A DNA stretch of 40,567 nucleotides from a virus. This document shows positions 1,904 through 40,567 of the stretch, piece by piece (position 1 is the stretch's first letter; every line of letters starts with the position of its first letter). The stretch is taken from positions 1-40,567 of the IMG/VR virus record IMGVR_UViG_3300015301_000001; one strand, 5' to 3'. The notes beneath the pieces were generated by a model. It saw nothing but the letters and a program-made list of their open reading frames with translations, had not been told where the DNA came from and ran no database searches. A program made the position numbers and the translations under genes.

Positions 1904-1936
1904 ACACCACAACCACTTCACAATCACTTCAAAACC

Positions 1937-2850: not shown

Positions 2851-4158
2851 ATGAATGAAGGACTAGATGCCGCCCTCGTGCTCGATACCGAGGGCGGCAA
2901 GCCCAGCAAGCAATACCGCACCAGTCCCTACACGGTGCGCGACTACTGCGGGCTACCCTACGCCCAGCGCGTGGCCGTGGACGCTGCTTGCGATGCTCGG
3001 GCGGGCATTCAGCGCACCGCCTACGCAGACGATACCAGCGTGCAGCCCTACACCGTGGGCCGCGCTACCCAAAAAGTAAAAGGTGCCCAGCCGGCACCTT
3101 TTAAAAGCGCCCAGCAGGCGCAATTACCCTCAACCACTTCACAACCAATTACTGCCATGTCTACCGCCACCGCCTACGTACACCCCGCCCCCTCGCCGGC
3201 CCTGCACACGCTCAACACCCCCGAGGGCATCGACCACAACGCCGCCCACCCCGACAGCCTGGCTACCTACGCCACGCCTGCCGACCAGGAGGCGACCCAC
3301 GGGGACTTCGCTTTTACCCCGGCCGGGCTGCCCGAGGGCGCGCCGCTGGCTGCCCTGGCTGATGCGGTGGACCTCGCCAGCACGCCACCCGCCCCGCCCG
3401 CCCCGGTGGCGCACCCCGGCACGGTGTACGAAACGACCAATTACGACCTGTTTCACCTGCTGCCTGAGAATCGGCCCGTTGACAAGGCCCACGTTCGCAA
3501 GCTGATGGCCTTCATCACCGAGCGCAACCTGCTGCGGGTGCAGCCCTTGGAGGTGACCGCCGACATGGGCCTGATTGATGGGCAGCACCGCCTCGCTGCG
3601 GCTCGTGAGCTGGGCCTGCCGGTGTACTACAAGATTGGTGAGCAGCTGAGGGAGGAAGACATTACGGCCCTCAATATGGCCCGCAAGAACTGGCAGGCCA
3701 CCGACTACCTGCACATGTGGACCATGAAGCGCAAACCCGCTTACGTGGCCTTTACCGACTTCCGGCAGCGTCACCCGCGCATTAGCTTCTCCAACGCCAA
3801 GATTCTGCTTAGCGGCGGCACGGGCGGCTCCAACGCTGAGGAATTTCGCCGTGGGCTGTGGGATGGGGCCGATGATGCCGATGTGGCCCTGGCTGATGAG
3901 GTGGCCGCCCTCGTGGAGCGCATCGCCGACGAGGTGCCCACCTTCAAGCAGGCATTTCACACGGGCTTCGTGGGTGCCCTCTACCACTGCGCTACCCGCG
4001 TGGAGGGCTTCGACGCCAAGGAGTTGATGCGAACCATCCTAGCCCAGCCGCTGAGCCTACTGCCCTGCGCTAGCCATAAGCAGTGGCTGCAAATGCTGGG
4101 CAGTATCTACAACTACCGCAAGAACGAGGGTAACCGCATTCGCTTCAGCAATGACTAA
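2851..4158 (+). CDS. ParB/Srx-fold (ParB N-terminal nuclease-like) domain protein; possible internal start at 3157
   Basis: C-terminal half has PLEVTADMGLIDGQHRLAAARELGLPVYY, the ParB-like DGxHR motif. The frame is open from ATG 2851. A hairpin plus leader cassette precedes ATG 3157. Confidence 0.7.
   Translation: MNEGLDAALVLDTEGGKPSKQYRTSPYTVRDYCGLPYAQRVAVDAACDARAGIQRTAYADDTSVQPYTVGRATQKVKGAQPAPFKSAQQAQLPSTTSQPITAMSTATAYVHPAPSPALHTLNTPEGIDHNAAHPDSLATYATPADQEATHGDFAFTPAGLPEGAPLAALADAVDLASTPPAPPAPVAHPGTVYETTNYDLFHLLPENRPVDKAHVRKLMAFITERNLLRVQPLEVTADMGLIDGQHRLAAARELGLPVYYKIGEQLREEDITALNMARKNWQATDYLHMWTMKRKPAYVAFTDFRQRHPRISFSNAKILLSGGTGGSNAEEFRRGLWDGADDADVALADEVAALVERIADEVPTFKQAFHTGFVGALYHCATRVEGFDAKELMRTILAQPLSLLPCASHKQWLQMLGSIYNYRKNEGNRIRFSND
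3078..3102 (+). terminator. Perfect 10-bp hairpin AAAAGGTGCC-CAGCC-GGCACCTTTT inside ORF 2851..4158
   Basis: Perfect dyad with an A4 tract upstream and T4 downstream, read directly from the sequence. Confidence 0.45.
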
Positions 4159-4831
4159 GAAAGCTGACCGTGACACCCGCCACCTGGAGGCGGTGGGTGT
4201 CTACTACCAAACCGGCGACGAGGCCGCCCTCGGGCCGATGCTGGGCGAGCTGCGCGAGTTGGCGCTGGCTTACCTGCGCGGGCGGCTTCGGGTGCGTGAC
4301 ACTGAACGGGCCGAAGACATAGCGCAAGAGGCATTATTGAAATTGCTGGGCCGCTTGCAGCGCCGCAAATTCAAGATACCAGGCCGCCCGCCCGGCGTGC
4401 TGCTCTGCATCATCTGCCAGCAAAAATTTAGCGCGAGCGCCCGCCACAACCCTAGCGAGCCCAGCCGAAGCGAAGACCCCTTTTTGCTCCTGCCACCCAG
4501 CACCGCCACGCAGGCGCAGGAGCTACCAACCGGCGAGGTGATGGCCGCCGCCACGGCCGCGCTGAGCGCCGCCACGCAGGCCGTGCTTGCCCTTGACCAG
4601 CACGCCCGTGCGGCCGTGGTGCTACACTACTTCCACGGCCTCGACGCGCCGGCCGCCGCCGCGAAGCTGGGCATTGCCGAGTCAGCATTTCGGGCGCGCT
4701 TGCGCCGGGGCCTGGCTGACCTGCAAGCCTGGGGCCGCACAGTGCCCCGCCCCGCTGCCGAGGTGTACGCGGCCCTGAATGGGGTAGACAGTGGCGACCT
4801 GTTCCGTGAGCCGCTCAGGATGGTGGGCTAA
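4151..4831 (+). CDS. Phage-encoded sigma-70 family (ECF-like) RNA polymerase sigma factor
   Basis: Region-2-like ERAEDIAQEALLKLLGRL and region-4 HTH-like ARAAVVLHYFHGLDAPAAAAKLGIAESAFRARLRRGLADL. The start overlaps the upstream stop in ATGACTAA. Confidence 0.7.
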   Translation: MTKKADRDTRHLEAVGVYYQTGDEAALGPMLGELRELALAYLRGRLRVRDTERAEDIAQEALLKLLGRLQRRKFKIPGRPPGVLLCIICQQKFSASARHNPSEPSRSEDPFLLLPPSTATQAQELPTGEVMAAATAALSAATQAVLALDQHARAAVVLHYFHGLDAPAAAAKLGIAESAFRARLRRGLADLQAWGRTVPRPAAEVYAALNGVDSGDLFREPLRMVG

Positions 4832-5103: not shown

Positions 5104-5802
5104 ATGCCCGAAATCCTAGTTTTCCCGCCCCATATCAACCGCGCCAAGGCGGCCCTCATTAGCGCCGGTATTTCCGTTTCGCAGGATAGCCCAGCCTACG
5201 CCGCCCTAATGATGGTAGCCATTGCCTGGGAGCGCACGCCGCAGGCAAACCGCGCCGAAGAACTACGGCAGGAGGTCGTAAAGACCCAGCACGAGCTTGA
5301 GGACGTGAGCGCCGACCTACTGACCGCCCGCAAGGACAACGCCCGCCTCGCGGACTTGCTTACTGAGAAGGAGCAGCCACCGCAGTTGCTTTCTTCAAAG
5401 GCCAGTAAAGAGGTAGCCAACCTATTGAAAGCCAACGCCCGCCTTCGTGAGCAACTGGAAAACGGCGGGGTTACGCCGCCCCATAGTCGGAAGCAGGAGC
5501 TAAATAACCTGAAAAGCCAAGTAGGCTCGCTTCGGCAGGAGTTGGCGAACCGCCCGGCCCACAACGACGAGAAGCTGGCCGCCATGTGGAAGGACGCGAG
5601 CGGGCAGAAAGACCGGCTGCGCAGGTCGCTGCGGCGCATCAATAAGGTGCTGGCCGATGTGGACCTGCCCGCCGACGAGAAGCTGGCGCGGGTAGCGGCT
5701 TTGACTGCCCACGGCCTGGAAGTAGGCACCCCAGCCGAGGCCGCCCGAAATGCTGAGTACGAGGCGCGCCAAGCAGAAGAAGCACTCGGGCAAGCCGCAT
5801 AA
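5104..5802 (+). CDS. Hypothetical coiled-coil protein
   Basis: Long heptad-like E/K/R/L/Q-rich sequence, followed by a terminator. Confidence 0.7.
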   Translation: MPEILVFPPHINRAKAALISAGISVSQDSPAYAALMMVAIAWERTPQANRAEELRQEVVKTQHELEDVSADLLTARKDNARLADLLTEKEQPPQLLSSKASKEVANLLKANARLREQLENGGVTPPHSRKQELNNLKSQVGSLRQELANRPAHNDEKLAAMWKDASGQKDRLRRSLRRINKVLADVDLPADEKLARVAALTAHGLEVGTPAEAARNAEYEARQAEEALGQAA

Positions 5803-16239: not shown

Positions 16240-16868
16240 TGAGAGTCGCCCGCATCATCACGAACATACAGTGCGGCCCGCGTAGCATCGTGGACCTGCT
16301 CACTAAGGACTACCTGCGCCTGAATGCCTCGGCTGACCCTACCACTCCCTACTCACTGAGCTTTCCCATACCAGCCGGCAAAAACGGCCTGACCATCGCC
16401 TTCTACACCCGGCAGGTGTCTGGCAACTTTGAGGGGTACTACCCCATACTCGAAGGCACCAATGGCTTGGATGGTGGTTTTGGCGGCTCGCAATTCGTGT
16501 ACGGCATTTTTCAAACGGCCGGCTTGTGGGTCGAAGGCTCAAATTTTGGCTATGGCCCCCGCTACCTCTATTCCTACCGGCGCTTCGTGCCGGTGGTAGT
16601 CCGCACCGCCCCCGGCGCGAGTTACGGGGCTGGCCGAATTGTTTTGAATGCCCCGGCCAATTCATCAATTCCTCGCAGCAACCTACTTGGTGACGTGGAT
16701 TTGGCCTACATGCCAGTGTACTATCGCCGCCTGACCGATGCCGAACTGGCGGCCCCCATGCTGCCCAGCGACTACGACCAGCTTTACACCTTCGCCAGCT
16801 ACACAGTCGGCGACACCACCGTGATTGAGCAGCTGGGCACCGGCCTTGATGCCACCCTTGTTTTCTAA
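16239..16868 (+). CDS. Hypothetical tail-module protein
   Basis: TAATG coupling to the upstream gene. Confidence 0.65.
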   Translation: MRVARIITNIQCGPRSIVDLLTKDYLRLNASADPTTPYSLSFPIPAGKNGLTIAFYTRQVSGNFEGYYPILEGTNGLDGGFGGSQFVYGIFQTAGLWVEGSNFGYGPRYLYSYRRFVPVVVRTAPGASYGAGRIVLNAPANSSIPRSNLLGDVDLAYMPVYYRRLTDAELAAPMLPSDYDQLYTFASYTVGDTTVIEQLGTGLDATLVF

Positions 16869-19522: not shown

Positions 19523-20020
19523 ATGAAAAAGGTACTACTCCCTCTGCTTGTGCTCATTGGTTGCAAAAGCGCGCCCGTGGAAGACCCGGCGCATAGTGCT
19601 ATAAGTGCCCTGCTGAAAAAGAGCATGGACGACCCAGCCAGTTACCAGCCAGTGAGTTGGAGCAAGCCCGAGGTGAGGTCGGTGCATGACAGCGTGGCCG
19701 CCTATAAGTACACGCTGGCTTCACAGATTATTACTAAAAATAAATTAATTTATATTGACTCGTCATCGGTAGCCCAAAACGGCGGGCGGGGCAGCTACGT
19801 GGAGAGCATGTTGAAAAGCACCCGCGCAAGTCTTGCCGCCGCCCGCCGTGAGCGAGATTCTTTATACCAAGCACTGCACCAGCCCTTTCCCAGCCCTGAC
19901 ACGGCGCGGCTGGGCTACTCAGTAACCCATGCGTTCAGGGCCAAGAACAAGTTTTCGGCCCTCGTCCTGGATAGTGCTGAGTTCTTTGTTGACCGGAAGG
20001 GCCGCATCTACCCGCGCTAG
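19523..20020 (+). CDS. Lipoprotein (moron; candidate superinfection-exclusion factor)
   Basis: Signal peptide with lipobox MKKVLLPLLVLIGC. Contains a locally AT-rich stretch. Confidence 0.75.
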   Translation: MKKVLLPLLVLIGCKSAPVEDPAHSAISALLKKSMDDPASYQPVSWSKPEVRSVHDSVAAYKYTLASQIITKNKLIYIDSSSVAQNGGRGSYVESMLKSTRASLAAARRERDSLYQALHQPFPSPDTARLGYSVTHAFRAKNKFSALVLDSAEFFVDRKGRIYPR

Positions 20021-20274
20021 GCGGCCACGTTCAACTCCTGCTCCATCTCCTTGATTGAAAGGTACACGGTAGAGCGCGCAACGCGGCACGAGGCGGCGGT
20101 GGCCTTCGCCGCGTTGCTGGGCCGGTCAACGTAGGCCGGGGTGGCGCGCAGGGCCTTGTAGGTGTTGTAAATATCCCGGCGCGAGTACACGGCCAGCGTC
20201 ACCGCCCCCGCCTTGTAGAGCGGAAACAGGATGCCGGCCTGCTCCATGTTGTTCAATAAATCGACTAGCCTCAT
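20017..20274 (-). CDS. Small HTH DNA-binding protein
   Basis: C-terminal AASCRVARSTVYLSIKEM is HTH-like. It starts 2 nt after the tape-measure stop, and its stop overlaps the lipoprotein stop (CTAG). Confidence 0.55.
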   Translation of the reverse strand: MRLVDLLNNMEQAGILFPLYKAGAVTLAVYSRRDIYNTYKALRATPAYVDRPSNAAKATAASCRVARSTVYLSIKEMEQELNVAA

Positions 20275-20276
20275 GG

Positions 20277-23200
20277 TTAAATGTCGGTTAAGGATTCGCG
20301 CTTCTCAATGTCTTTATTTTTCTCCCGTAGCTCGGTCAGATTCAGGTTCTGAGCAGGTAGTGCCTGCGCACCAGCCACGAACGCCGGCCCGAGCTTGGCG
20401 GCCAGCGTGTCGGCTAGCTGGGTGTAGTCGATGGCCTGCCCAGCATCCTGCACCACGCCCCCGGTGCGAACGGCCGGCAGGTACATGGCGCTGCTCGACA
20501 CCACGCCCCCGGTGGCGTAGTGTGCCCACTTGCTGGCTGGCAGCGAATCCGTGTAGAAGGCCCGGCCCCCGGCCGCCACGTTCAGGGCTGAGGCGGCGGC
20601 ACGCAGCACGGGGTTGCGGTGTACGCCCTTGGTCAAAATAATTTCTTCGCCTTCCATCTCCCCGAGGTGGGCACCGGACTTGTGGAACAACTGCACGCCC
20701 CCGGCCGCGTGGCTCGGGCCGTACACCACGCCACCGCGGGCGAATTTTGCCGAGTCGATGGCGCGGAACTGTGCGGCGGCCGTGGCCGTGGCGGCGGCAA
20801 TCTGCAAGCCACGCACCAGCGAGGCGGCCGGCTCGATGAAGGGCGCGGTGGGGCTTTTCAAAATCATAAGGATGGCCGCGCCCAGATTCACTACCGCCTC
20901 AGCCTTAGCTATTTTTCGGCGCTGTTCGGCGGCCTGGGCTTCAATGCGCGTCTTCTGCTTCTCCAGCACCGCCTTCTTGGTGGCGCTCACGCCCTCCTTG
21001 TTCATCTGCGCATCAATCTGATTGAGGCGGTCCTGGCTGGCCGCGTCTTGGATGGTGGCGATGGAGCTGACCGACTGCGAAATGATGGAGGCCACCCGGT
21101 CATACTTGGAGGCGATGAGGTCGATTTGGGCCTGGCTGCTGTCGCGCTCAATGTTGGCGAGGTTGATGGCGTGCTGCTTTTCGACGTTCTCCCGCGCCGT
21201 GGTGCCCTCCTTGGTGGCAGTCAACCCAGCGGAGTAGTTGTCAATTTCGGCGCGCAGCACCTCGTTGTAGTACTCTTTCGAAGCCTGAACCCGCTGCTGC
21301 TGCCCGGCATCGAGGCCGGCGAGTAGCTTCTGCTGATTCAGTTCGGCCCCGCGCTGCTGCTCGCTGAGTTCGGCGACGACGTTCTGCGTGTCCTGCTCGT
21401 TGAGTGCCCGGCGCTTGGCTACGGCATCGGCCCGAATGCCTGTCACCTGCGTTTCGTAGGCCAGCGTACTCATGGCCCGCTTGTCGAGGCCAGCAATGGC
21501 AAGCTCCTGCTCTTGGTCAATCAGCTTGATTTCCAAGTTGCGGCGCTCCACCGTGCCGGCTTTCGTGAGGGCGAGCTGGGCCTGATTGGTTTCGACCTGC
21601 GACTGAATCACCAGGGCATTCACTTGGCGCTCGAAGTCCTCGCGCAGCCTCAGCTCCGCCGCGTTGGCCTGCATCTTCCGCAGGGGGATGTTGGCAACCG
21701 CTTCCTGTGCTGCCTTGAGGTCGTACTTCTGCTCTACCTCAAAACGCTTCTGCGCGTAGTCGGCAGTGATTTCGGTTTTCTGCAACTCGGTCAGGCCCTG
21801 CGCATCAAGGGCCTGCTGCTGCTGGGCCTTCAAGCTGCCCAGTTCCTTGGCGTAGCCCACCGCCCGCAGGCGGGTTTTCTCAGCCAGTGCGTCGGTGGCC
21901 TGCTTGTTTTCGAGGGCGGCCTGGGCCTGAACTAGCTGCTGCTGCAACCGCAGTTCCTCGGTGGTGCCCTTCTGCACCGTGGAGAGGCGCAGGTTGATGC
22001 GGGAGATATTGCGCTGAAGCTGGGCGTTCTCGGCCGCGTCCTGCTGCTCAATGCGCCGGGCCAACACCTGAACGGCACGCTGGGCATTGGTTTGCACATC
22101 GGCCGCCGACTGCTGCCGGGCGGCGCGGTCTTTCTCTATGCCCTCCGTGAGTAGGCTGGCGCGCTCGTTCAGCAGGTTCACGAGGGTAAGCTCGTTCTTC
22201 TTGGCATCCTCGTTTATTTTCTTGTCGCTGTCCGACAGGGTTTTATTGGCCGCCTGCCGTTCCCGAATGCGGGCCAGCTCCTTGACGTGGGCCAGCTCGT
22301 TCTTCTCGTTGAGGTCTTGCTGCTTGGCAATAAGCCGGTCGATGTTGGCGATACGCTCCTGCGCCACCTGCCGGGCCGAAGCACCAGCCAGTTCCGTGGC
22401 TCTTATTTCGGCGTCGGTTTGCTCGCGTAGGGCCTGGGCGCGCTCCAGTTCTATAGCGGCCAACTTGGCGGCCTTCTCCGCTGTGGTATCGAGCAATCCA
22501 ATATATTCACCCAGGGCAACCAGGTTGGTTTTCACTGCGCCAGCCACCTTGTTGAAGGTGTTGATTACTGGGTCAAGAATGGCGCGGACTGCGGCGAATT
22601 TCTCGTACAGCTTTTGAATACCGAAAACGGCCAGCCCGATGGGATTGGTAAATAGTAGCAGCGCCTTGGTGAATTCCTTTACTTTGGCCTGGGTCTGCTC
22701 GCTGGCGTTGCGGTAGGCAAAGAAGCCCGCCACAAGCGCCGCCACGAGTGTGATGATAATACCGATAGGGTTGAGGCGCAGCACCAAGTTGAGCCCGCGC
22801 TGGGCAATGGTGGCCCCTTCCGTGGCAACCACCTGGGCCTCGGTGGCTACGGTGCTGCTGGCCGTGGCGGCGGTGCTGGCTGCCTGCCCCTCGGCATTGA
22901 GGGCGGCGGCCTCGGCCTGGGCAGTTATCGCCACCGCGTCGGCACCAGCTACGGCCGCGTGCGCTTCGGTGCTGACTGCGGCGGCGGCCGTGAGCGTAGC
23001 CTCTTCTTTTAGGAAAACGCTCTTAATCTTCATCAACACAATGCCGGCCGCGTCTTTGGCCGAGTCGATGCCGATGGCGATGGCCCGCGCATTCTGCGCA
23101 ATGGTCATCAACTGCAATGCTTTAGCCTGGGCCGCTGCTGCGTCGGTGTTATCGCCCAGCACCAGCGTAGCCACCGAGAACGCGCCGACCATACCCTGCA

Positions 23201-24326
23201 CGGCATCGGTCACGGTGTCGAAATTCTCCTTTTTGATGTTCTTCTGCACCTTCTCGCCGAACTCGTCAATCTTACCCTCGGCCTGTTGGATGTTGGTGCG
23301 CAGTTCGAGTATCTCCGTGTTGAGGTCCTGGGCCTCCTGCGTGGTGGGGTCGAGGGTTTCGCGGGTATTGAGTAGCTGAATGAGCTGCTCGCGCAGGGCA
23401 GCGAGCGAGCCGGCCGCCGCCGTGGTGGCCTGGGCCTGCTGGCCGGCTGCCGTGGCTGTGCCCTGCGTTGCTTTCTCGGCCGATACCTGGGCGGCCACCA
23501 CCTCGTCAAGTGCTTTCTGCGCACCAGCCACGCGGAAACCTAGCTGCTGGAATTGCTCGCTGCTTTCGCCGGCTGTCTGCCCTACCTGCTGCTGCTCCTG
23601 CTGCAAGCGCACCAGGTTCTCCACGGCTGGCGTGAATGCCTGGGTGTATTGGTCGATGGTGGCCTTCGCCTGGGTGAAGTCGGAGATGCCGGCCTGCGCG
23701 GCGGCGCGCTGGGCAGCGGTAAGGAAGCCCACGCGGGCGCGCTCAAGCTGGCCGCCCTGCTCGCTTTGGGCATCTACGCCTCTTTGGGCCACCTGAATCT
23801 TGGCTAGCTCGGCCACGATAGGGGCGAGGCCCTGCTTAAACGAGGCGGCATAATTTCCGACGTTACGCCCGGTACTGCCCACGCTGCCCTCAATGAGCTT
23901 GAGGGCATCCGACACCTGAAGCGCCTGCTTCTGAATGGCTTGGCCTTCGGCTGACTTACGCTCGGCCTCACCCATCGCGTAGTAGGCGGTGGTAAGCTCG
24001 AAAAGCTGGGCGCGTAGTTGCTCAGCTGAGCCAGCCGCAGCGTTATACGCCCTCTGACCCATAGCCAGCCCCTTTTCTAGTTCGCGTTGGTCAGCAGTTT
24101 GCCCGCGCAGTTGCTCGCGCAGCTTCACGGCTTGCTCTGAGTATTGTTTATCCGTGAGCTTGCCGGCCTCGCGCTCCTTTTTTAGCGCGGCCTGGGCGGC
24201 TTTTGTCTTCTCAATGTCAAGGAGTTGCTGTTGCAACGCCTCGCGTATAAGTTTCTGCTCTGCCTTGTACTGCTCCGCGTTTATTTTGACCTCAAAAATG
24301 ACGGTCTCGGTGGTTTGGTCAGCCAT
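20277..24326 (-). CDS. Tail tape-measure protein
   Basis: About 1350 aa, Ala/Gln/Glu-rich and coiled-coil, with internal hydrophobic segments (LNPIGIIITLVAALVAGFFAY). ATG 24326 (MADQTTE...) is preferred over the track start at 24503. Confidence 0.8.
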   Translation of the reverse strand: MADQTTETVIFEVKINAEQYKAEQKLIREALQQQLLDIEKTKAAQAALKKEREAGKLTDKQYSEQAVKLREQLRGQTADQRELEKGLAMGQRAYNAAAGSAEQLRAQLFELTTAYYAMGEAERKSAEGQAIQKQALQVSDALKLIEGSVGSTGRNVGNYAASFKQGLAPIVAELAKIQVAQRGVDAQSEQGGQLERARVGFLTAAQRAAAQAGISDFTQAKATIDQYTQAFTPAVENLVRLQQEQQQVGQTAGESSEQFQQLGFRVAGAQKALDEVVAAQVSAEKATQGTATAAGQQAQATTAAAGSLAALREQLIQLLNTRETLDPTTQEAQDLNTEILELRTNIQQAEGKIDEFGEKVQKNIKKENFDTVTDAVQGMVGAFSVATLVLGDNTDAAAAQAKALQLMTIAQNARAIAIGIDSAKDAAGIVLMKIKSVFLKEEATLTAAAAVSTEAHAAVAGADAVAITAQAEAAALNAEGQAASTAATASSTVATEAQVVATEGATIAQRGLNLVLRLNPIGIIITLVAALVAGFFAYRNASEQTQAKVKEFTKALLLFTNPIGLAVFGIQKLYEKFAAVRAILDPVINTFNKVAGAVKTNLVALGEYIGLLDTTAEKAAKLAAIELERAQALREQTDAEIRATELAGASARQVAQERIANIDRLIAKQQDLNEKNELAHVKELARIRERQAANKTLSDSDKKINEDAKKNELTLVNLLNERASLLTEGIEKDRAARQQSAADVQTNAQRAVQVLARRIEQQDAAENAQLQRNISRINLRLSTVQKGTTEELRLQQQLVQAQAALENKQATDALAEKTRLRAVGYAKELGSLKAQQQQALDAQGLTELQKTEITADYAQKRFEVEQKYDLKAAQEAVANIPLRKMQANAAELRLREDFERQVNALVIQSQVETNQAQLALTKAGTVERRNLEIKLIDQEQELAIAGLDKRAMSTLAYETQVTGIRADAVAKRRALNEQDTQNVVAELSEQQRGAELNQQKLLAGLDAGQQQRVQASKEYYNEVLRAEIDNYSAGLTATKEGTTARENVEKQHAINLANIERDSSQAQIDLIASKYDRVASIISQSVSSIATIQDAASQDRLNQIDAQMNKEGVSATKKAVLEKQKTRIEAQAAEQRRKIAKAEAVVNLGAAILMILKSPTAPFIEPAASLVRGLQIAAATATAAAQFRAIDSAKFARGGVVYGPSHAAGGVQLFHKSGAHLGEMEGEEIILTKGVHRNPVLRAAASALNVAAGGRAFYTDSLPASKWAHYATGGVVSSSAMYLPAVRTGGVVQDAGQAIDYTQLADTLAAKLGPAFVAGAQALPAQNLNLTELREKNKDIEKRESLTDI

Positions 24327-24375
24327 AATGCCCCGAATTTCCTGCCGAGGTTGGCACGTCTGCAAGCCTGCATAC

Positions 24376-24410
24376 GCAAAAGCGTAACAGGATTGCGAAA
24401 AGCGTAACGC
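24376..24410 (-). promoter_or_regulatory. Second copy (minus orientation) of the tandem GTTACGCTTTT late element
   Basis: The reverse complement matches 7089..7123 at 31 of 35 positions. It lies 49 nt upstream of the tape-measure ATG. Confidence 0.55.
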
Positions 24411-24483
24411 AATTCCGTATGTGTCCGATTTTGCTTGGCTAAAACCCCGAAAACCACCTGCGTAGCGGCTGAAACTTTGCGCT

Positions 24484-25644
24484 ATGCAAGAAGCCAAAGT
24501 CACTATCGCGGGGCCAATCGTCGCCGACAGCAGCGAAGCCGGCGACGCGTGGCCCTACTGCACCCTCGAAGACGTGCAGGCGCAGCTCGAATATCAAAAG
24601 CCCTACGACACGGTGCGCGTTACCATCAACTCGCCCGGTGGGCGTGTCGATAAGGGCATGGGCCTGTATGATTTGTTCCGCAGCCTGCCGAATGTAACCG
24701 TTATCACTGAGGCGATTGGGCAGTGCAGCAGCATCGCCACGGCGGTATTCCTGGCCGGCTCCCAACGCATCATTCACCCGCACACCGAGAGCCTCGTCCA
24801 CCTGCCCACGGGCGGTATCAATGGCGCTACGGCTGAGCAGGCGCAAACCTGGGCGGCCGAGATGGCCCGCTGCGAGGCTGACCTGCTTTCCCTGTACGCG
24901 GAACGGGCTGGGGTAGACCCGGCCACCTTCACCGACATCATGCGGGCCGAAACCACGCTGACCGCTCAGCAGATGCTCGACTACGGTTTTGCCACGCGAA
25001 TCGTGCAGCCGACCACCGCCCTGGCAATCATGCCCTCTACTGCCTCCACCTCGGCTGATGCCGACCAAGCGCCCGGCTGGGCGAAACAATTTATGTCAAT
25101 TTTCAACCAAGGCATCGCCGCTATGACGGCCGCCATGAAACGGCCAGCCACCGCGCAGGCCCCCGAGAAAGAGGCGGCTACCGACCTCGATGTAACTACT
25201 GATACCGGCGCAGTGCTGAGCATCGACACCGGCGACCGCGACACCTACGCGGTAGACGACACCGTGAGCGACAGCGACGGGAACCCGGCCGCTGATGCTG
25301 ACTACCTGCTGACCGATGGCAATACCATCACGGTGGCCAGCGGCGCTATCAGCACCATCACGCCCCCCGCTACTGATGCGCAAGCCAATGCTGGCGAGAC
25401 AGCCGTGGCCCTCAATAAAGTAATTGAGGTAGTTACGGCCCTGGCTGGCAAAGTGAACGGCCTGGAAAGCAAGCTCGCAGCTACTGCCAAGGTCGCTAAC
25501 CGTGTAGCGGCTACGGCTGGCAGTTCTGCCACGGCTCCCCGCGCTGCGGCTGCCGCTGGCGACAAAGAGCCTGACACCGACCCTACCAAGACCGCCGCCG
25601 AAAATCGCGCCGCTCGTCGTCAAGCCCGTTTCGCTAAGGCGTAG
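24484..25644 (+). CDS. ClpP-like (S14) prohead protease fused to a scaffold-like C-terminal region
   Basis: TINSPGGRVDKGMGLYD, GQCSSIATAVFLAG and VHLPTGG match ClpP motifs. The C-terminal half is low-complexity and coiled-coil. Confidence 0.85.
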   Translation: MQEAKVTIAGPIVADSSEAGDAWPYCTLEDVQAQLEYQKPYDTVRVTINSPGGRVDKGMGLYDLFRSLPNVTVITEAIGQCSSIATAVFLAGSQRIIHPHTESLVHLPTGGINGATAEQAQTWAAEMARCEADLLSLYAERAGVDPATFTDIMRAETTLTAQQMLDYGFATRIVQPTTALAIMPSTASTSADADQAPGWAKQFMSIFNQGIAAMTAAMKRPATAQAPEKEAATDLDVTTDTGAVLSIDTGDRDTYAVDDTVSDSDGNPAADADYLLTDGNTITVASGAISTITPPATDAQANAGETAVALNKVIEVVTALAGKVNGLESKLAATAKVANRVAATAGSSATAPRAAAAAGDKEPDTDPTKTAAENRAARRQARFAKA

Positions 25645-32802: not shown

Positions 32803-32815
32803 GTTGCCCCTGAAA

Positions 32816-32862
32816 ATAAACTTACACATTACAACAAATAATGTTGTAATGTGTAAGTTTAT
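32816..32862. promoter_or_regulatory. 47-bp palindrome (21-bp perfect arms, 5-bp centre); candidate HigA operator
   Basis: ATAAACTTACACATTACAACA / TGTTGTAATGTGTAAGTTTAT verified base by base. It abuts the -7 box of higB. Confidence 0.6.
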
Positions 32863-32866
32863 GTGC

Positions 32867-32874
32867 TACCTTTG
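32867..32874 (+). promoter_or_regulatory. Bacteroidota-type -7 promoter box TACCTTTG for higBA
   Basis: Exact TAnnTTTG, 4 nt before ATG 32879 and 13 nt before ATG 32888. Confidence 0.5.
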
Positions 32875-32878
32875 GGAC

Positions 32879-33181
32879 ATGATAGTGATGCACAAAAAGA
32901 CGGTAAGGGAGTACGGCGAGGCCCACCCCCCGGCCGCCGAGCCCTTAAAAGAATGGTTCGCCAAAGTAGAAGCCGCCGATTGGGCCAACTTCTCAGAATT
33001 GAAAAACGACATGAGGCCCACGGATTTGATAGGCGGCGACCGCTACATTTTCAACATAGGCGGCAACAAATACAGGCTACTAGCCGCCATAATGTTCAAA
33101 ACCAGAACCATACTAATAAGAGGAATCTACACCCACCGCGAATACGACAGGCTCACGAATCACCAACTACTCACCCTCTAG
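32879..33181 (+). CDS. higB: HigB-family (RelE-fold) mRNA interferase toxin
   Basis: KKTVREYGEAHP...WFAKVEAADWANFSELK...FNIGGNKYRLLAAIMFKTRTILIRGIYTHREYDRL matches the HigB pattern (F-N-I-x-G-N-K-Y-R-L...THxEYD). Alternative start at ATG 32888. Confidence 0.85.
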   Translation: MIVMHKKTVREYGEAHPPAAEPLKEWFAKVEAADWANFSELKNDMRPTDLIGGDRYIFNIGGNKYRLLAAIMFKTRTILIRGIYTHREYDRLTNHQLLTL

Positions 33182-33247
33182 GGGGTGAGTAGTACCCGGC
33201 TCCACTATCATACCGCCGCATCAATCACTTCAGCCACCACCACTACA

Positions 33248-33739
33248 ATGTCCACGCTCACCATCCCCACCATCACCAACGACGACGAGCTTGCCCGCGC
33301 CATTGATGAATACTACCCGCTCGCTGCGGCCCTCGAAACCTCCGACGCTGAGCCCAGCCCCTACGTGCTGGGCCTGCGCGATGCCATCGACGCTTACGAG
33401 CGCCGGGCCGGCCACGCGCCCGAGCCGCCCCAAACGGTGGCCGGGCTGCTGGAGGTCGAAATGTTCAAGCGCAAGCTGCGCCAGCGCGGGCTCGCCGAAG
33501 TGCTGGACGTGCCCGAAACCCGCCTGAGCGAAATCCTGCGCGGCAAGCGGGGCATGAACCTGGACTTTGCGCGGCGGCTGTTTGTGCGCCTGAGCGTGCC
33601 GGCCGAGGTGATATTGAAACTGCAAGACGTGGGCGAAGGGGTCGCCATGTCGGTGACCCCTTCGCGCCGCAAGCCCGCACCCAGCAAGAACAAAAAATAT
33701 CCCCGTTCACTTTCCCCCTTACCCCATGACCGAGCTTGA
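33248..33739 (+). CDS. higA: HigA-family HTH (XRE) antitoxin
   Basis: LLEVEMFKRKLRQRGLAEVLDVPETRLSEILRGKRGMNLDFARRLFVRLSVPAEVIL is typical of HigA. ATG 33248 is preferred over GTG 33185. Confidence 0.8.
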   Translation: MSTLTIPTITNDDELARAIDEYYPLAAALETSDAEPSPYVLGLRDAIDAYERRAGHAPEPPQTVAGLLEVEMFKRKLRQRGLAEVLDVPETRLSEILRGKRGMNLDFARRLFVRLSVPAEVILKLQDVGEGVAMSVTPSRRKPAPSKNKKYPRSLSPLPHDRA

Positions 33740-34299: not shown

Positions 34300-34537
34300 T
34301 GTTTTAGCTGGGCGCATCGGCATGTTTTACCTATGTTTTACCCAGGTAAGCATAAAGGCCCGCTAAGTGCTTGACTTAGCGGGCCTTTATGTACTCATGT
34401 TAGAGGTAACGGGCGTACTTCGCACTGTGACACAGGCCCAGTAACACGCCCACTGTGTCACGAATCTAGGGCGTTTCTGCTGAATTACCCGAGTCTTCCG
34501 CCTCCGTGTGGCGGTTTTGTTTTACCCCTGTTTTACC
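34300..34537. other. Candidate attP region (arm-type repeats, long hairpin, core-like repeats)
   Basis: TGTTTTACC at 34323, 34334, 34518 and 34529, plus TGTTTTAGC at 34300. An 18-bp perfect hairpin at 34351..34391. CACTGTGACAC at 34423 and CACTGTGTCAC at 34451. The region is adjacent to int. Confidence 0.5.
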
Positions 34538-35833
34538 AGCGCCCAGGGCGGCGTACACGGTGCGGGCGGCGGCGTCTACCTCGAAGGTATCATGGTCGCG
34601 CAAATAGACCTCCGTGGTGCTCGTGCGCTTGTGGCCCAGCAGCCCGCCGGTGGCCCGTATGTTGCCGGCCAGCGCCCGCTCGCCCAGCGTTGCCAGCGTG
34701 CGCCGCGCTACGTGGCTGCTCATTTTCTTGTCGATGCCCAGGCGCGTCATGCACCGCTTGAGGTTGGCGTTGATTGACGAGGTTTCCCGGCGCGTGATTA
34801 CCAACTGGGCACTGGGGTGCAGCTTCTCAAAATCGGCCGGCAGGTAGGGCAGTATATAATCGCCTGGCTTCGGCTTGCCGATGGCCGGCAGCAGCGAATC
34901 AAGTAGGGCCGTTAGTTCCGGGGTTTCCTCCACGTCCTTCTCGTGGCCGCCCTTGTCCATCACGAACTTGAGCCGGCCGTGGGCGCGGTCCTTCCATTTG
35001 AGGCGCAGGATTACACCGATACGCGAACCGTGGGCGTAGTGCTGAATGAAGTACACCACGCGCGCCAAGTGCTGCCGAGGTGGCAGGGGCACGTTCTCGA
35101 AGTCGATTACCTCCCCTTGCTCCAACCACACCCGCTTCGTTTTGCCGGTGGGGTAGTCGTAGTACTGCATGGGGTCGTCCTGCGGCTTCATCTTCTTGGC
35201 GCGGATGGCATCCGTTATAAAGATGTGCAGCGTCTTGAGGTTCTTGGCGGCCGTGCTGGGGGCGTTGCCCAGCGTGCCCAGCAGGTAGCCCTCGTACTTT
35301 TTGACCAGCTCGGCAGTCAGCAGGGGGAAGGGCAGGGGCTTCGGCTTGCCCTTGCTGTCGGTGCCGTGCCAGTTGGCGAACTTCTTCACCACCGGCCGGC
35401 GCACGTCGATGGTGCCCTGCGCCAGCCCCGTGGTGGCCTGCCGTTTGGCGTGGGCCTCATCGACCAGCTTCTGCTCAGCTGCGAGCCGCTCGTAACAGAA
35501 GGCGATAAAGTCGGGCGCGGCGGGGTCAATGTCGCCGTTGCGCAGGGCCGCCTTGAGTTGGTCGGCACCCCACCGCGGATTCTCCTGCGCCAACGCCTGC
35601 GCCCGGTCATGCCAGCGCAGCAGCGCGCTATTGTGGGCATCGTGCAGGCGCTCAGACGTGCGAACCCAGTTTTTAGTTAATAGGCTGGCCTTGGGGTTCC
35701 AATGCTTCTGAGACAAAGAAATACCCGTGTTTTGGTAACGAACAACGCGGTCGGCGATTATACGCAGGCGCACATCATAAAGCCCGTCACTGTCGGCCTT
35801 CGCGGCTAGAATCAGTTTGAAGGTGGCGGGCAT
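34466..35833 (-). CDS. int: Tyrosine recombinase / phage integrase (Bacteroidota type with N-terminal arm-binding domain)
   Basis: N-terminal FKLILAAKADSDGLYDVRLRI and SAM-like middle region. The C-terminus has SHVARRTLAT...LLGHKRTSTTEVYL, matching the R-H-R-Y catalytic pattern. Confidence 0.9.
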   Translation of the reverse strand: MPATFKLILAAKADSDGLYDVRLRIIADRVVRYQNTGISLSQKHWNPKASLLTKNWVRTSERLHDAHNSALLRWHDRAQALAQENPRWGADQLKAALRNGDIDPAAPDFIAFCYERLAAEQKLVDEAHAKRQATTGLAQGTIDVRRPVVKKFANWHGTDSKGKPKPLPFPLLTAELVKKYEGYLLGTLGNAPSTAAKNLKTLHIFITDAIRAKKMKPQDDPMQYYDYPTGKTKRVWLEQGEVIDFENVPLPPRQHLARVVYFIQHYAHGSRIGVILRLKWKDRAHGRLKFVMDKGGHEKDVEETPELTALLDSLLPAIGKPKPGDYILPYLPADFEKLHPSAQLVITRRETSSINANLKRCMTRLGIDKKMSSHVARRTLATLGERALAGNIRATGGLLGHKRTSTTEVYLRDHDTFEVDAAARTVYAALGAGKTGVKQNRHTEAEDSGNSAETP

Positions 35834-36177: not shown

Positions 36178-36708
36178 CTAGCCTTTATCTACGCGCTCCT
36201 GAAGCGCCGCGAGCTGCTCCTGTAGCTCCTTGACCACGGCGGCAGTATCGGCCACCGTTTGCAATAAGTCCATCCCTGGCAGCGCCGGGGGTGCGGGCTT
36301 GTGCGTCTTCCTGTTAGCCGCCGAATAAGTCGGGACTATTTGCCCGTGCTGCTCGACTACATCCCCCCTCACCAGGCCGGGGCTCGGGGGCTCGTGCGCC
36401 GTTAAATTTTCAGGGAAAAGTTCGGCGGCATTATACGACAATCTTTTTTGTGTGTCAGCGTCCGGCGGCGTCGGTTTGAGCATTTCACCCTCGCCAAGCA
36501 GCAGCCACGATGTACTGACTTGCGGATATGCCACCAGGATTTTGCGCACCATATCAATACCGGGCTTATTCTTCCGCTCGCTGAAAAGGTCGCTAATCAT
36601 GCCTGCGCTCACGCCAATCTTGAGCGAGAAGCGCCGCTTCACCCCCTTCTCGTAGTGGTCAATCAGTAAATTAATCCGCTGATTAATAGGGTCTTGTGTG
36701 TCGGACAT
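36178..36708 (-). CDS. CI-like phage repressor (HTH)
   Basis: RFSLKIGVSAGMISDLFSERKNKPGIDMVRKILVAYPQVSTSWLLLGEGEM matches the phage CI-repressor HTH pattern (...WLLxGxGxM). The gene is divergent from the early operon. Confidence 0.75.
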   Translation of the reverse strand: MSDTQDPINQRINLLIDHYEKGVKRRFSLKIGVSAGMISDLFSERKNKPGIDMVRKILVAYPQVSTSWLLLGEGEMLKPTPPDADTQKRLSYNAAELFPENLTAHEPPSPGLVRGDVVEQHGQIVPTYSAANRKTHKPAPPALPGMDLLQTVADTAAVVKELQEQLAALQERVDKG

Positions 36709-36763: not shown

Positions 36764-36771
36764 TACCTTTG
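36764..36771 (+). promoter_or_regulatory. The -7 promoter box TACCTTTG for the rightward early operon
   Basis: Exact TAnnTTTG, 44 nt upstream of ATG 36816, followed by a G-free CAA-repeat leader. Confidence 0.55.
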
Positions 36772-36815
36772 CAACACCAACAACAACAACAACCGAAAGA
36801 TAAGGCAATCAAACT

Positions 36816-37043
36816 ATGGCCGATACCCAAAATCCCCCAACCATGCGCGAAGTGCTGGGAAAGGGCTGGATGACGCCGCTAGCTCTGAGCGGCGGCCCCA
36901 AAGACTCCGCAGCCCTTTCGCGCCTCGTCAACTACGAGCACACCACGAGCAAATACTGGCCGGCTGTCGAAGCCCTCGCCAAGACTGTCAACCCCGAGGG
37001 CTTCGCCCGCTGGGAGGCCGCCCGCTTACCGCAAGCTGCCTAA
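36816..37043 (+). CDS. First early gene (Cro-like by position), hypothetical
   Basis: 75-aa ORF divergent from the repressor gene. It supersedes the N-terminal part of track ORF 36752..37531. Confidence 0.6.
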   Translation: MADTQNPPTMREVLGKGWMTPLALSGGPKDSAALSRLVNYEHTTSKYWPAVEALAKTVNPEGFARWEAARLPQAA

Positions 37044-37081
37044 TCCTTTTCCTCCACACACTTCACAACCACTTCAACCTC

Positions 37082-37531
37082 ATGCGCCCTAACGCATCAA
37101 TTCCGGCCCCCTTGGTGCCTACGCTGCCCGACCTGTTTAATAAGCGCCGCCGCCACAATGCCACCGAGCTACAAGGCGGCGACCAACTGCACGCCACCAG
37201 TTCCTTGCTGGGCTTCAAACGCGGCGCGGTGCTGCCTATCTACGGCTACTGCGTCCTGACTGATGAGCGCGGCCAAGTCTACTCGGTGCGCGCCTACGTG
37301 CGGCCCGTGAGCATGGACCACGCCGTGGCCTTCGATAGCCGCGAGGCCGTGCGCTACCCCTCCAATGGCCTGGGCACCCAGCAAGAATATTGGTTCGGTG
37401 CCTACCTGATGTACCTGACCGAAATCGACCTGACCGACTACGCCGATTGCCTGCGCCTGGAGCGCCTCAGTGCCCGCGTGCTGCCCCTGCTAGTCGAAGC
37501 CACCGAATACTCCTACGTCGAAGCCGCCTAG
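37082..37531 (+). CDS. Hypothetical early protein
   Basis: ATG 37082 is preceded by the conserved tandem CACTTCA leader. Confidence 0.65.
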   Translation: MRPNASIPAPLVPTLPDLFNKRRRHNATELQGGDQLHATSSLLGFKRGAVLPIYGYCVLTDERGQVYSVRAYVRPVSMDHAVAFDSREAVRYPSNGLGTQQEYWFGAYLMYLTEIDLTDYADCLRLERLSARVLPLLVEATEYSYVEAA

Positions 37532-37535
37532 CGCC

Positions 37536-37844
37536 ATGCCGGTCATTGCTTTTATATCAGTCGAAGAACATGAGGCAGCTATTAGCGGCTTGCGGGCTGA
37601 GTTCCGCGATATGCTGAGCGCCTACGTGACCGACCACGAGCAATGGGTGACCACCGAACGGGCCGCTGAACTAGCCGACATCTCCCGCTCCACCCTTGTG
37701 AAGTTCGCCCGTGCCTCGGCACCCGATACGAAGCAGGAGGGGCGCATTACCTACAAAAAGGAGGGTACTAAATCCCTCTACTGTCGCAGTAGCTGCATCG
37801 ACTACAAGCGATTAAAAGCCGGCCGCCCGGCGCTGGCGGCATAA
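37536..37844 (+). CDS. HTH DNA-binding protein (excisionase/MerR-like)
   Basis: WVTTERAAELADISRSTLVKFAR helix-turn-helix. Confidence 0.55.
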   Translation: MPVIAFISVEEHEAAISGLRAEFRDMLSAYVTDHEQWVTTERAAELADISRSTLVKFARASAPDTKQEGRITYKKEGTKSLYCRSSCIDYKRLKAGRPALAA

Positions 37845-37881
37845 AAAAAGGAACCCCGACCACTTCACCTGTCGGGGTTCC
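37843..37881 (-). terminator. Intrinsic terminator functional only on the minus strand
   Basis: 11-bp perfect stem GGAACCCCGAC/GTCGGGGTTCC. The run of 7 A at 37843..37849 reads as a T7 tract after the stem on the minus strand. There is no T-tract on the plus strand. Confidence 0.6.
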
Positions 37882-37918
37882 CAATTAGCCAGCCCGCCCC
37901 TAAGCGAGCCAACCACTT
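37843..37918 (-). ncRNA. Candidate ~75-nt antisense/trans-acting sRNA carrying two anti-leader motifs
   Basis: A minus-strand -7 box lies upstream and a U7 terminator downstream. The 5' GAAGUGGUUGG and the loop AGGUGAAGUG are complementary to the AACCACTTCA(CC) early-gene leaders. Confidence 0.35.
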
Positions 37919-37923
37919 CGGTG

Positions 37924-37931
37924 CAAAGATA
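37924..37931 (-). promoter_or_regulatory. The -7 promoter box TATCTTTG on the minus strand (no CDS downstream)
   Basis: Exact TAnnTTTG, seen as CAAAGATA on the plus strand. Confidence 0.45.
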
Positions 37932-37960
37932 GACAGCCAACTCACAACCACTTCAATTTT

Positions 37961-38425
37961 ATGAAAATCGCCACCGCCACCACCGCCCCCGATTTCGCCG
38001 CTATCAAGGCCGTTGCCTCTGTCGTTGACCTCAACATGGAGGCCCGCAAGCTGGCCCGTTTGCGCCTTGAGTTTGGCGCGCTTTATCAGCAGTATCAAGA
38101 CGTGCTGCAAGCCGACGACGAAGGCATGGAGGTGACTATTACCATCCGCAGTACCACCAAAACGCTCAAGTTGCGGGACACCGGCCTTGACTATTTCAAT
38201 ACGGGCGACTACTACCAAAATGTGGGCACCTACCTCGACCACTTGCAGAAGCAAATCATAGAGCTACACGAGAAGGCGCAAACCACGGGGCTTGACAAGG
38301 GCGGAAGCGCCGCCGACCAGCAAGACCAAGCTATGGGCGTTCACGCCTTGGCTCTCTGCCTGCCTGAGCAGCCCACTACGGCTGAACCTGTATTGCACAC
38401 CAGCCGCGCCGCCCGCGCCGCCTAG
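37961..38425 (+). CDS. Hypothetical early protein (paralog A)
   Basis: Preceded by the tandem leader. Shares MK..T.TAPDF, L.HL and ALxxCLP features with the next gene. Confidence 0.7.
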   Translation: MKIATATTAPDFAAIKAVASVVDLNMEARKLARLRLEFGALYQQYQDVLQADDEGMEVTITIRSTTKTLKLRDTGLDYFNTGDYYQNVGTYLDHLQKQIIELHEKAQTTGLDKGGSAADQQDQAMGVHALALCLPEQPTTAEPVLHTSRAARAA

Positions 38426-38468
38426 CCTTCCTTTTTTAATTATTCAATTGCTTTTCAATCACTTCACC

Positions 38469-38990
38469 ATGAAAGTTAATAAAACCCCCGCCGCTGCTAC
38501 TGCCCCCGACTTCGGCCACGCCACCATCCCACACTTCGGCCACGGCTACGAGAATAATCTTAATTACGTGCTGGCTGAGCAGCACCGTGAACAGTACCTC
38601 GCCCACTACATCACAATGCAGAAGGTGAGCGCAGCCTTCATTGAGGGCATCCAATCCGTGACCCTGAACACCCCGAGCGGCAGCGTTACCGTGGCCCTGT
38701 ACAGCAGCACCGGCGAAGACCTGCATAAGCGGGCGGGCAATCTGTACACCGACCTCTCCGAAGTAATTGGCGCGCGCCTGGCGCACCTGGAGCGGCTCAT
38801 TGCCCAGCATGAAGAGGACTCTCGAAAGGAGGAAGCCGACGAGCGCGAGGGTAAGGGCCGCCGAGCAGACGCGCTCACCTTCTGCCTGCCCATGCGCAAG
38901 ATGAGCGATGCAGAATACGACGCCTTGCCCCCCGAGGCCCAGCGCGCACATCTGCATTACGGCGCTATGGTACGAGACGAAGCTGCCTAG
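38469..38990 (+). CDS. Hypothetical early protein (paralog B)
   Basis: ATG 38469 is preceded by CAATCACTTCACC and lies in frame within track ORF 38292..38990. Confidence 0.65.
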   Translation: MKVNKTPAAATAPDFGHATIPHFGHGYENNLNYVLAEQHREQYLAHYITMQKVSAAFIEGIQSVTLNTPSGSVTVALYSSTGEDLHKRAGNLYTDLSEVIGARLAHLERLIAQHEEDSRKEEADEREGKGRRADALTFCLPMRKMSDAEYDALPPEAQRAHLHYGAMVRDEAA

Positions 38991-40083: not shown

Positions 40084-40094
40084 TTACTTCGCCC

Positions 40095-40567
40095 ATGTCC
40101 ACTTCCTTACCGCTACTGCTGCCGGCCGTTGATACCGGCCCCGTAGAAGCCCAGGCCGAGGCCACCGCCACGACGCTGTACAATACCCTACTGCACCTGC
40201 ATACCTACCGGGAAGAGCAGCGCGGCCGTGCCGACCTCACGCCCTGGCAGTTTGAGCACCTGCGCAAAATTGAGAACGTGCTTGATGCCGTAGCTGCCGA
40301 CAAAATCCAGACCGCGCAACTGCTCACCGTCTTGCACGCCAACGTCGAAGGCCTGAACGGTCAGCTGCACGCGGCCATCAACCGGGGGGATGCCCCGGCT
40401 TGGATGCTGAACCCCAACGCTACCCCGGCCGAGGTGCTGGCCGAGCGCGAAGCCGACCCCGTGTATCGGCTGGGCTACGTCCGTGGCTACCGCCGTGGGC
40501 TCGACTTGGGGCAGCAGCAAAACGAGCGCCTGCTGAGTCTGTACGCGCAGTACGCCATCCTAGTGCC
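40095..40567 (+). CDS. 5' part of a hypothetical protein continuing at 1..274 (about 207 aa in total)
   Basis: ATG 40095 is preceded by AACCACTTCATAATTACTTCGCCC. The frame stays open to the window end. This ORF is absent from the track because there is no stop inside the window. Confidence 0.7.
   Translation, partial: MSTSLPLLLPAVDTGPVEAQAEATATTLYNTLLHLHTYREEQRGRADLTPWQFEHLRKIENVLDAVAADKIQTAQLLTVLHANVEGLNGQLHAAINRGDAPAWMLNPNATPAEVLAEREADPVYRLGYVRGYRRGLDLGQQQNERLLSLYAQYAILV
40445..40567 (+). repeat. Terminal direct repeat, copy B (identical to 1..123)
   Basis: Base-by-base identity. Confidence 0.95.

Follow-up and report, generated by a model that had tools for sequence, protein, structure and literature searches.

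The closest analogues in mechanism of the locus described here would be the antisense RNAs of the c4 and sar/OOP types and the Bacteroides small RNAs that act on initiation regions. The c4 immunity antisense RNA of phages P1 and P7, reportedly characterized by Citron and Schuster in 1990 and 1992, acts on the icd-ant leader; it is processed from the transcript of its own target and has that one target. The OOP RNA of lambda and the sar RNA of P22 are small, terminator-ended RNAs directed against an early operon, made from a constitutive host-type promoter and acting only on the transcript that they overlap. At the DNA level, OmpR/PhoB boxes and 11-bp iterons such as those of R1 parC are sites placed relative to a promoter, and the OmpR/PhoB-type boxes have a geometry of 7-bp repeats with 4-bp spacers. 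We are aware of no sRNA regulon described before in a Bacteroidota phage, nor of the usual RNA chaperones in this phylum. In Bacteroides thetaiotaomicron, the small RNA GibS uses a 5' seed against the initiation regions of mRNAs that have no Shine-Dalgarno sequence (PMC7366714). Finally, Cluster K mycobacteriophages carry start-associated repeats (SAS), 13 bp long, present in 11–19 copies and containing the Shine-Dalgarno core AGGAG; their function is unknown, and the authors left open whether the partner is an RNA or a protein (PMC3203893).

The window that we analyzed is a viral DNA of 40,567 nucleotides, whose terminal 123 bases are identical (1–123 and 40445–40567), so that it closes into a circle of 40,444 bp with 61% G+C. 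In contig searches, exact protein matches were found only to the phage's own contig (Logan assembly SRR6986446_4129). The phage is temperate: it has genes for a tyrosine integrase of the Bacteroidota type (34466–35833, minus strand) and for an HTH repressor (36178–36708, minus strand). Its early block runs rightward across the contig junction and comprises genes for a replication-initiator-like protein (39094), a DnaB-like helicase, a ParB-like protein (3157; phrog_12305, E 5.7e-24), an ECF-like sigma factor (4151–4831, plus strand; Sigma70_r4_2, E 1e-8) and a methylase; the structural genes follow at about 7 to 32 kb. The sigma factor gene, which lies directly 3' of the ParB-like gene and forms with it a pair kept in all relatives, presumably switches on the later genes. 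A search for tRNA genes in this phage found none. Within the otherwise rightward structural region lie a minus-strand open reading frame (20277–24503, 1,349–1,408 amino acids) and a small one beside it (20017–20274).

The original prediction placed the phage in a host of the Bacteroidota, and this guess holds. The relatives of the phage are Hymenobacter prophages (in H. setariae Fur1 and in Hymenobacteraceae MAGs), its leaders are unstructured, and no Shine-Dalgarno sequence was found before any of its start codons, which is consistent with the absence of Shine-Dalgarno use by Bacteroidia ribosomes (PMC6847099, PMC7797042).

A repeated CACTTCA core had been noticed before at least six early genes, and counting confirmed its presence there. 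The decamer AACCACTTCA occurs five times exactly (1911, 3132, 37067, 37946 and 40071) and five more times with one mismatch (1922, 33223, 37858, 37911 and 38457), always on the plus strand. CACTTCA itself has 11 copies, all on the plus strand, against 3.4 expected, a count that none of 100 shuffles reached. All five exact decamers lie 5–16 nt upstream of an ATG, and when one mismatch is allowed, eight copies out of ten end 2–16 nt before an annotated one; the binomial probability of ending no more than 30 nt upstream of a start is 4.6e-8 for the exact copies (5/5) and 7.8e-11 for the wider set (8/10). Enrichment upstream of starts also emerged from a de novo k-mer count over the 30 nt before all starts, in which k-mers of the motif came top (CACTTCA, z 9.7; ACTTCA, z 8.6; also CTTCA). 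The only copies with at most one mismatch outside leaders, those at 37858 and 37911, both fall within a single intergenic stretch, 37843–37919. As predicted, the late genes are devoid of the motif, no copy being found across the structural region (about 7–32 kb).

The position of the core relative to the start codon takes few values: it ends at about -6 before the genes starting at 1937, 37082 and 37961, at -3 before the 38469 gene, and at about -15 to -17 before the genes starting at 1937, 3157, 37082, 40095 and 33248. A distance of exactly 11 nt is the sole recurrent short spacing of ACTTC[AG] and is observed three times; an 18-nt tandem pattern with at most three mismatches has six matches against 1.9 expected. 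The claim of five 11-nt tandems stands in part only. The tandems at 1914/1925 and 37059/37070 are perfect, but the second cores at 3146 (CAATTAC), 37938 (CAACTCA) and 40085 (TACTTCG) each carry three mismatches, and the corresponding variant decamer units (3143, 37935 and 40082) differ at 3 of 10 positions.

Seven genes carry the motif in their leaders, namely the ParB-like gene, a HigA-like gene and five genes of unknown function. The 1937 gene (300 amino acids) has a perfect, G-free tandem in its leader (1902–1936), made of AACCACTTCA (1911–1920) and AATCACTTCA (1922–1931), and the ParB-like gene has AACCACTTCA (3132–3141) followed by the variant AACCAATTAC (3143–3152) in a leader spanning 3121–3156. 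Before the 37082 gene (149 amino acids; leader 37039–37081), ACACACTTCA (37056–37065) precedes AACCACTTCA (37067–37076), and before the 37961 gene (154 amino acids; leader 37935–37960) the variant AGCCAACTCA (37935–37944) precedes AACCACTTCA (37946–37955). The 40095 gene (207 amino acids), which continues at 124–274 across the junction, has AACCACTTCA (40071–40080) and the variant AATTACTTCG (40082–40091) in its leader (40068–40094). Single units, AATCACTTCA in both cases, precede the 38469 gene (173 amino acids; leader 38451–38468, unit 38457–38466) and the HigA-like HTH regulator starting at 33248 (leader 33220–33247, unit 33223–33232), the latter being a seventh carrier in addition to the six first listed. 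All these leaders are on the plus strand. The adjacent genes 37961–38425 and 38469–38990 are distant paralogues (29% identity, E 3e-7), and a search for family matches of their products found none. There is little or no room for a promoter at two of the sites, since AACCACTTCA at 40071–40080 overlaps the final codons and the stop codon of the replication-initiator gene before it, and the 37082 gene follows the upstream stop after a spacer of only 38 nt, which has no terminator. A promoter for the phage sigma factor was considered and rejected, because the 11-nt centre-to-centre spacing does not fit a -35/-10 geometry and because the sigma factor gene is itself in a motif-bearing operon. We know of no convincing match of the motif to the 16S rRNA of other species. 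At the HigA-like locus, the antitoxin gene (33248–33739) follows a HigB toxin gene (32861–33181); a 53-nt near-perfect palindrome lies upstream of the pair (32813–32865), and a TACCTTTG box is found at 32867, just inside the called higB start.

The repeat is best explained as a start-associated sequence that marks the initiation regions of early, replication and regulatory genes. Like SAS (PMC3203893), it is short and asymmetric, occurs in a single orientation a few nucleotides before mostly ATG starts, is confined to non-structural, unrelated genes and is absent from the host. Unlike SAS, it contains no G, belongs to a phage of a host that does not use Shine-Dalgarno sequences, is often in tandem with an 11-nt period, has fewer copies and has a candidate RNA partner in the same genome. 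As it has no Shine-Dalgarno core, we regard it as SAS-like and not as a member of SAS.

Absence of G, the other property of these leaders, proved to be real but not specific to early genes. Runs of G-free sequence do cover 1902–1938, 3121–3153, 37039–37083 (45 nt) and 37937–37962; however, late and host genes are alike in this respect. Indeed, many late genes have at most three G between -30 and -1, and 7 of the 14 host genes sampled next to the attachment site of a related prophage have at most two G before the start; the motif is absent from this small sample of 14 host leaders, G-poor as they are. Over 55 nt, the motif leaders have almost no structure (0 to -4.7 kcal/mol), and in a genome of 61% G+C an initiation region can easily be kept free of pairing by omitting G. 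Most plausibly, therefore, the absence of G follows a general rule of the host, only the sequence-specific repeat requiring a special explanation. The first early transcript also has a G-free (CAA)n start (36772–36794), directly after the early rightward promoter box TACCTTTG (36764–36771, plus strand). This box faces a near-consensus box, TATCTTTC (36799–36792, minus strand), which would serve the repressor gene, with the (CAA)n between them; such a face-to-face pair is also found in the relatives L001 (1563–1577) and L006.

The region 37843–37931 had been pointed out as encoding a possible sRNA partner, and it does have the anatomy of an sRNA gene, on the minus strand and with two complements of the motif. 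The gene lies in the spacer between a gene ending at 37844 and the gene starting at 37961. A predicted Bacteroidota-type -7 promoter box, TATCTTTG (37931–37924, minus strand; consensus from PMC7366714), precedes a candidate RNA of about 75 nt (37843–37919, minus strand) that would begin with GAAGUGGUUGG and continue through a stem-loop, SL1, and a terminator hairpin to a U7 tail. TAnnTTTG has only seven matches in the genome; besides TATCTTTG, three of them are at sensible promoter positions, namely the early promoter (36764), the integrase gene (35857) and the higBA region (32867). The terminator hairpin (37850–37881, minus strand) is GC-rich, with 11–12 bp, and only on the minus strand do seven U follow it (A7 at 37843–37849 on the plus strand); the plus-strand hairpin is followed by CAAUUAG. 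A TAnCTTT[GC] box that has both a hairpin and a T-run no more than about 75 nt downstream was observed only once in the genome, at 37843–37931. The candidate RNA folds into two hairpins (-40.4 kcal/mol, z -5.5); because 7 of the 25 pairs are G.U, the plus strand cannot form this fold and reaches only -26.5 kcal/mol. An Rfam scan of this phage found no family at the gathering score, the sRNA locus giving sub-threshold noise only.

The first of the two complements of the motif in this RNA is the predicted 5' end, GAAGUGGUUGG (37909–37920, minus strand), which is partly buried in SL1 in the predicted fold; it is complementary to CAACCACTTC, a sequence that the leaders of the 1937, 3157, 37082 and 37961 genes contain. 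The second complement is the 10-nt terminator loop AGGUGAAGUG (37861–37870 in plus-strand coordinates, minus strand). Written as target sites, CAACCACUUC is complementary to the 5' end and CACUUCACCU to the loop. By our own estimate, the chance of both non-leader copies falling within one unit of 77 nt is about (77/40444)^2. In all, 9–10-nt matches connect the candidate RNA to seven leaders: the 5' end is complementary to the ParB-like leader at -26 to -17 as well as to the other motif leaders, and CACTTCACC in the 38469 leader agrees over 9 nt with the loop's complement. Computed with the seeds alone, pairing yields -12 to -17.5 kcal/mol at each seed, and the seven motif leaders rank 1–7 of 51, a ranking that is circular and serves for quantification only. 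When the cost of unfolding was included, the motif leaders were not singled out. Thermodynamic rankings of targets were discarded: unrestricted duplex folding gave meaningless long duplexes, scans confined to the unpaired segments were dominated by GC-rich coding sites, and cofolding, which cannot model loop contacts, placed the C-rich late leader of the 10986 gene first.

To place these features in context, we compared the early region with those of related phages. Nucleotide and protein searches of published phage genomes found no relatives, but searches using the helicase and a ParB-like protein alignment yielded about 20 distinct related loci, with best identities of 64% for the ParB-like protein and about 70% for the helicase. 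They share a gene order (repressor, two small early genes, HTH gene, ParB-like, sigma factor, replication initiator, helicase). Phages that share the integrase (75–81% identity) have unrelated early regions, with neither the motif nor the sRNA unit. In L043 (11400–13700) and L045 (11400–12100), prophages with integrases 74–75% identical adjoin a cyanophycin synthetase gene, which is likely to flank the attachment region of this type of integrase. On the same Hymenobacter-like contig, L043, the leader of a host DUF885 gene (16470–16507) contains ACTTCT twice, 11 nt apart and 10 nt before the ATG; it is a single case, the leader of the orthologue in L045 having no such pair.

A minus-strand unit of the same build was found in 17 loci, the TAnCTTTG box being its sole invariant block. 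In all 17, the minus-strand fold is better than the plus-strand fold, with 3–8 G.U pairs each, an asymmetry that does not depend on the covariance-model alignment. The latter was used because the initial sRNA alignment was off by one column between subgroups, so that a consensus fold failed. A covariance model built from four units detected 14 minus-strand copies in relatives (E <= 3e-5). In the model-guided alignment, 96.4% of cells are paired, 9 of 20 pairs have changed on both sides and one G.U pair does not vary. Covariation scores 0.407; shuffles score 0.214, none of 500 attaining the observed value, and slid partners at most 0.158. All these figures come from an alignment fitted to the covariance model, which favours structure. 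Judged from such comparisons, the relatives carry at the equivalent place a predicted minus-strand RNA that is conserved and covarying. It matched no Rfam family. The covariance model did not detect the candidate sRNA of our phage, which is thus an analogue of the relatives' RNA by position and architecture, not a proven homologue. At the place of the relatives' sRNA gene, upstream of the ParB-like gene, our phage has two hairpins (3073–3130), a two-way terminator, AAAAGGTGCC...GGCACCTTTT, and a small one made of GCGCC/GGCGC, with no -7 box (TAATTGCG instead); this may be the remnant of an ancestral sRNA site.

In most relatives, the sRNA gene abuts the ParB-like/sigma operon and is antisense to the spacer before it; there, provided that transcription reads through, its RNA would be antisense to the intercistronic one. 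Complementarity to leaders in trans was observed only in the two phages in which the sRNA gene does not abut this operon, the present one and L001, and none above background was found in 14 relatives. In L001, the sRNA gene lies at a distance of one gene from the ParB-like gene (5.7 kb in our phage), and the 5' end of the RNA, UGAAAAGGGGUGAGAA, is perfectly complementary over 16 nt to the phage's own ParB-like leader, from -28 to -13, although this leader is completely different in sequence from the motif. Thus two phages have unrelated leaders, each mirrored in the 5' end of the phage's own RNA, in a configuration in which cis-antisense action on the ParB-like/sigma operon is impossible, and this is the strongest argument for RNA–RNA pairing. 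The terminator loop of the relatives' sRNA, AUGACAGC, is conserved while its stem covaries (L003 6810, L004 3713, L013 861 and others), which suggests a function for the loop; a search for complementary sites in the relatives' loci found none.

The motif itself is conserved in part: its CTTCA core and 11-nt phasing are found in relatives, but the exact decamer is absent from all those found, whether in viral, genome or metagenome contigs. Indeed, 11 relatives have kept CTTCAT-N5-CTTCA, with its 11-nt phasing, in the ParB-like leader, the first core being 19–20 nt from the minus-strand box and the second 6–8 nt from the ATG. Single CTTCAC units recur before other starts, and ACTTCA and TTCAC are enriched in the relatives' leaders, with counts inflated by homologous leaders. 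Since the core is kept in relatives whose sRNA has no complementarity to it, it must have some role beyond pairing; probably this role is older, whether in translation in cis, in protein binding or as an upstream part of the divergent RNA promoter, and the sRNA in the lineage of our phage came to match the core later. In L016 (about 5620–5646) and L018 (about 5690–5712), whose ParB-like proteins are 55–59% identical, the CTTCA tandem and the sRNA are replaced by a palindrome, TTGACAAATCTGTCAA, directly before the ParB-like ATG, which suggests a protein operator in this lineage.

Our tentative reading, to which we give slightly less than an even chance, is that a phage sRNA docks on the motif and so gates the translation of early genes. 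The motif, the build of the sRNA gene and its complementarity to the leaders are well supported, and from these we infer that the RNA is made and that it pairs with the leaders in vivo. An RNA of about 75 nt would be transcribed leftward from the host-type promoter at 37931–37924 and would end at the terminator at 37850–37881. Its 5' end and its loop would pair with a long (CAACCACUUC) and a short (CACUUCA[C]) form of the motif, respectively, most targets offering both. The resulting duplexes, spanning -27 to -6, would cover the 30S binding site in a host where Shine-Dalgarno pairing is not used, and a single RNA could in this way set the translation of about seven genes together. The likeliest direction would be a coordinated repression of early, replication and regulatory proteins; a positive effect is also possible.

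The candidate sRNA resembles c4 in its size of about 75 nt, in its two short exposed segments, in the two sites around the ribosome-binding region, in its proposed action in trans and in that the matching sequences differ between related phages (here, our phage and L001). It differs in having its own promoter box, in being on the opposite strand and in having about seven candidate targets; moreover, it has no sequence relationship to c4, the Rfam C4 family not being among the weak matches. With OOP and sar it shares a small size, a terminator end, a host-type promoter and an orientation against the early operon, but its complementarity, like that of the L001 RNA, is to distant leaders. GibS likewise has a promoter of the -7 box type, ends at an intrinsic terminator and pairs through a 5' seed, but it is chromosomal and AT-rich, has metabolic targets without a common repeated motif and shows no sequence similarity to the candidate (PMC7366714).

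Docking of an sRNA would not by itself demand so tight a register to the ATG (-6 in three unrelated genes, about -16 in five), and the motif might instead be a signal in cis: the host initiation machinery, for instance bS1 or another component of the 30S platform, would recognize CACUUCA at -6 and -17 directly, and the copies within the sRNA gene would have a secondary role (as a competitor, for example) or be unrelated. A fixed register across non-homologous genes, the recurrence of CTTCA(C) upstream of starts in relatives with sRNAs that are not complementary to it, the A that the motif puts at -6, and leaders that are unstructured and G-free, as Bacteroidia initiation favours (PMC6847099), all speak for such a signal. 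Yet the late structural genes, presumably the most translated, do without it, as do the G-poor leaders of the small host sample. Furthermore, in Flavobacterium the known positive determinants are not a sequence-specific repeat but adenines at -3, -6, -12 and -13 (PMC6847099), and the motif leaders mostly have no A at -3. A cis signal also leaves unexplained the two antisense copies in one small-RNA gene and the L001 16-mer. We consider it rather unlikely as the explanation, but it is compatible with the sRNA model. In a combination of the two that we find very unlikely, the phased CACUUCA would be a Shine-Dalgarno substitute for early genes, and the sRNA an anti-signal that titrates or masks it.

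Alternatively, the repeats could be protein sites, in DNA or RNA. Like OmpR/PhoB boxes and R1 parC, they are 7-bp direct repeats with an 11-bp period, which is about one helical turn, and they could bind a dimeric phage regulator on one helix face, candidates being the ParB-like protein, the small first early protein and the HTH proteins; in the relatives they would also form the upstream element of the divergent sRNA promoter. The 4-bp spacers match OmpR/PhoB-type geometry as well, the first core of the 11 relatives is always at the position of a -33 element or activator (19–20 nt from the -7 box), the copy at 37911–37920 is on the predicted sRNA start, a possible operator position, and the tandem is conserved where sRNA complementarity is absent. 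However, the distance of 19–20 nt from a minus-strand box is found in our phage only at 37946, in the 37961 leader, which overlaps the upstream region of the predicted sRNA promoter; the six other motif leaders have no minus-strand box. By contrast with OmpR/PhoB boxes, the motif is registered to start codons, inside operons, and mirrored in an RNA gene, and a DNA operator needs no fixed distance from the start codon. Nor does the L001 16-mer have internal repeats or symmetry; one copy is exactly in a hairpin loop, which matters for RNA and not for duplex DNA; and the search of the early proteins found no winged-helix or response-regulator gene. A protein site is improbable in our judgement. 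As for functionless relics, that is, leader segments copied by gene duplication or short-homology recombination and helped by composition bias, the paralogy of the 37961 and 38469 genes, the G-free, CA-rich composition, which raises the odds of similar short words, and the failure to find a close relative with the same decamer that would show purifying selection could be invoked. But five exact decamers were found where we estimate about 0.08 expected (81 kb, both strands), in one orientation, at two fixed distances from the ATG and mostly before unrelated genes. The flanks and the ATG spacers differ, so that leader blocks were not simply copied, and phages with a protein identity of only about 63% still share the core and its phasing. 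We judge a relic highly improbable.

If the motif is indeed the docking site of a phage sRNA, several implications follow. Start-associated repeats have been known in mycobacteriophages since 2011 without a known partner or function, and the similar motif described here has a candidate RNA partner in the same genome, so that the question of the partner can be addressed directly by compensatory mutations. The locus also bears on how translation starts are chosen and regulated in Bacteroidota without Shine-Dalgarno pairing. The comparison with relatives suggests how an antisense RNA acting in cis can turn into a trans-acting one once its gene has moved. Lastly, the reading of the motif as a Shine-Dalgarno substitute, if true, would mean that a phage of the Bacteroidota carries a self-contained system for addressing translation.
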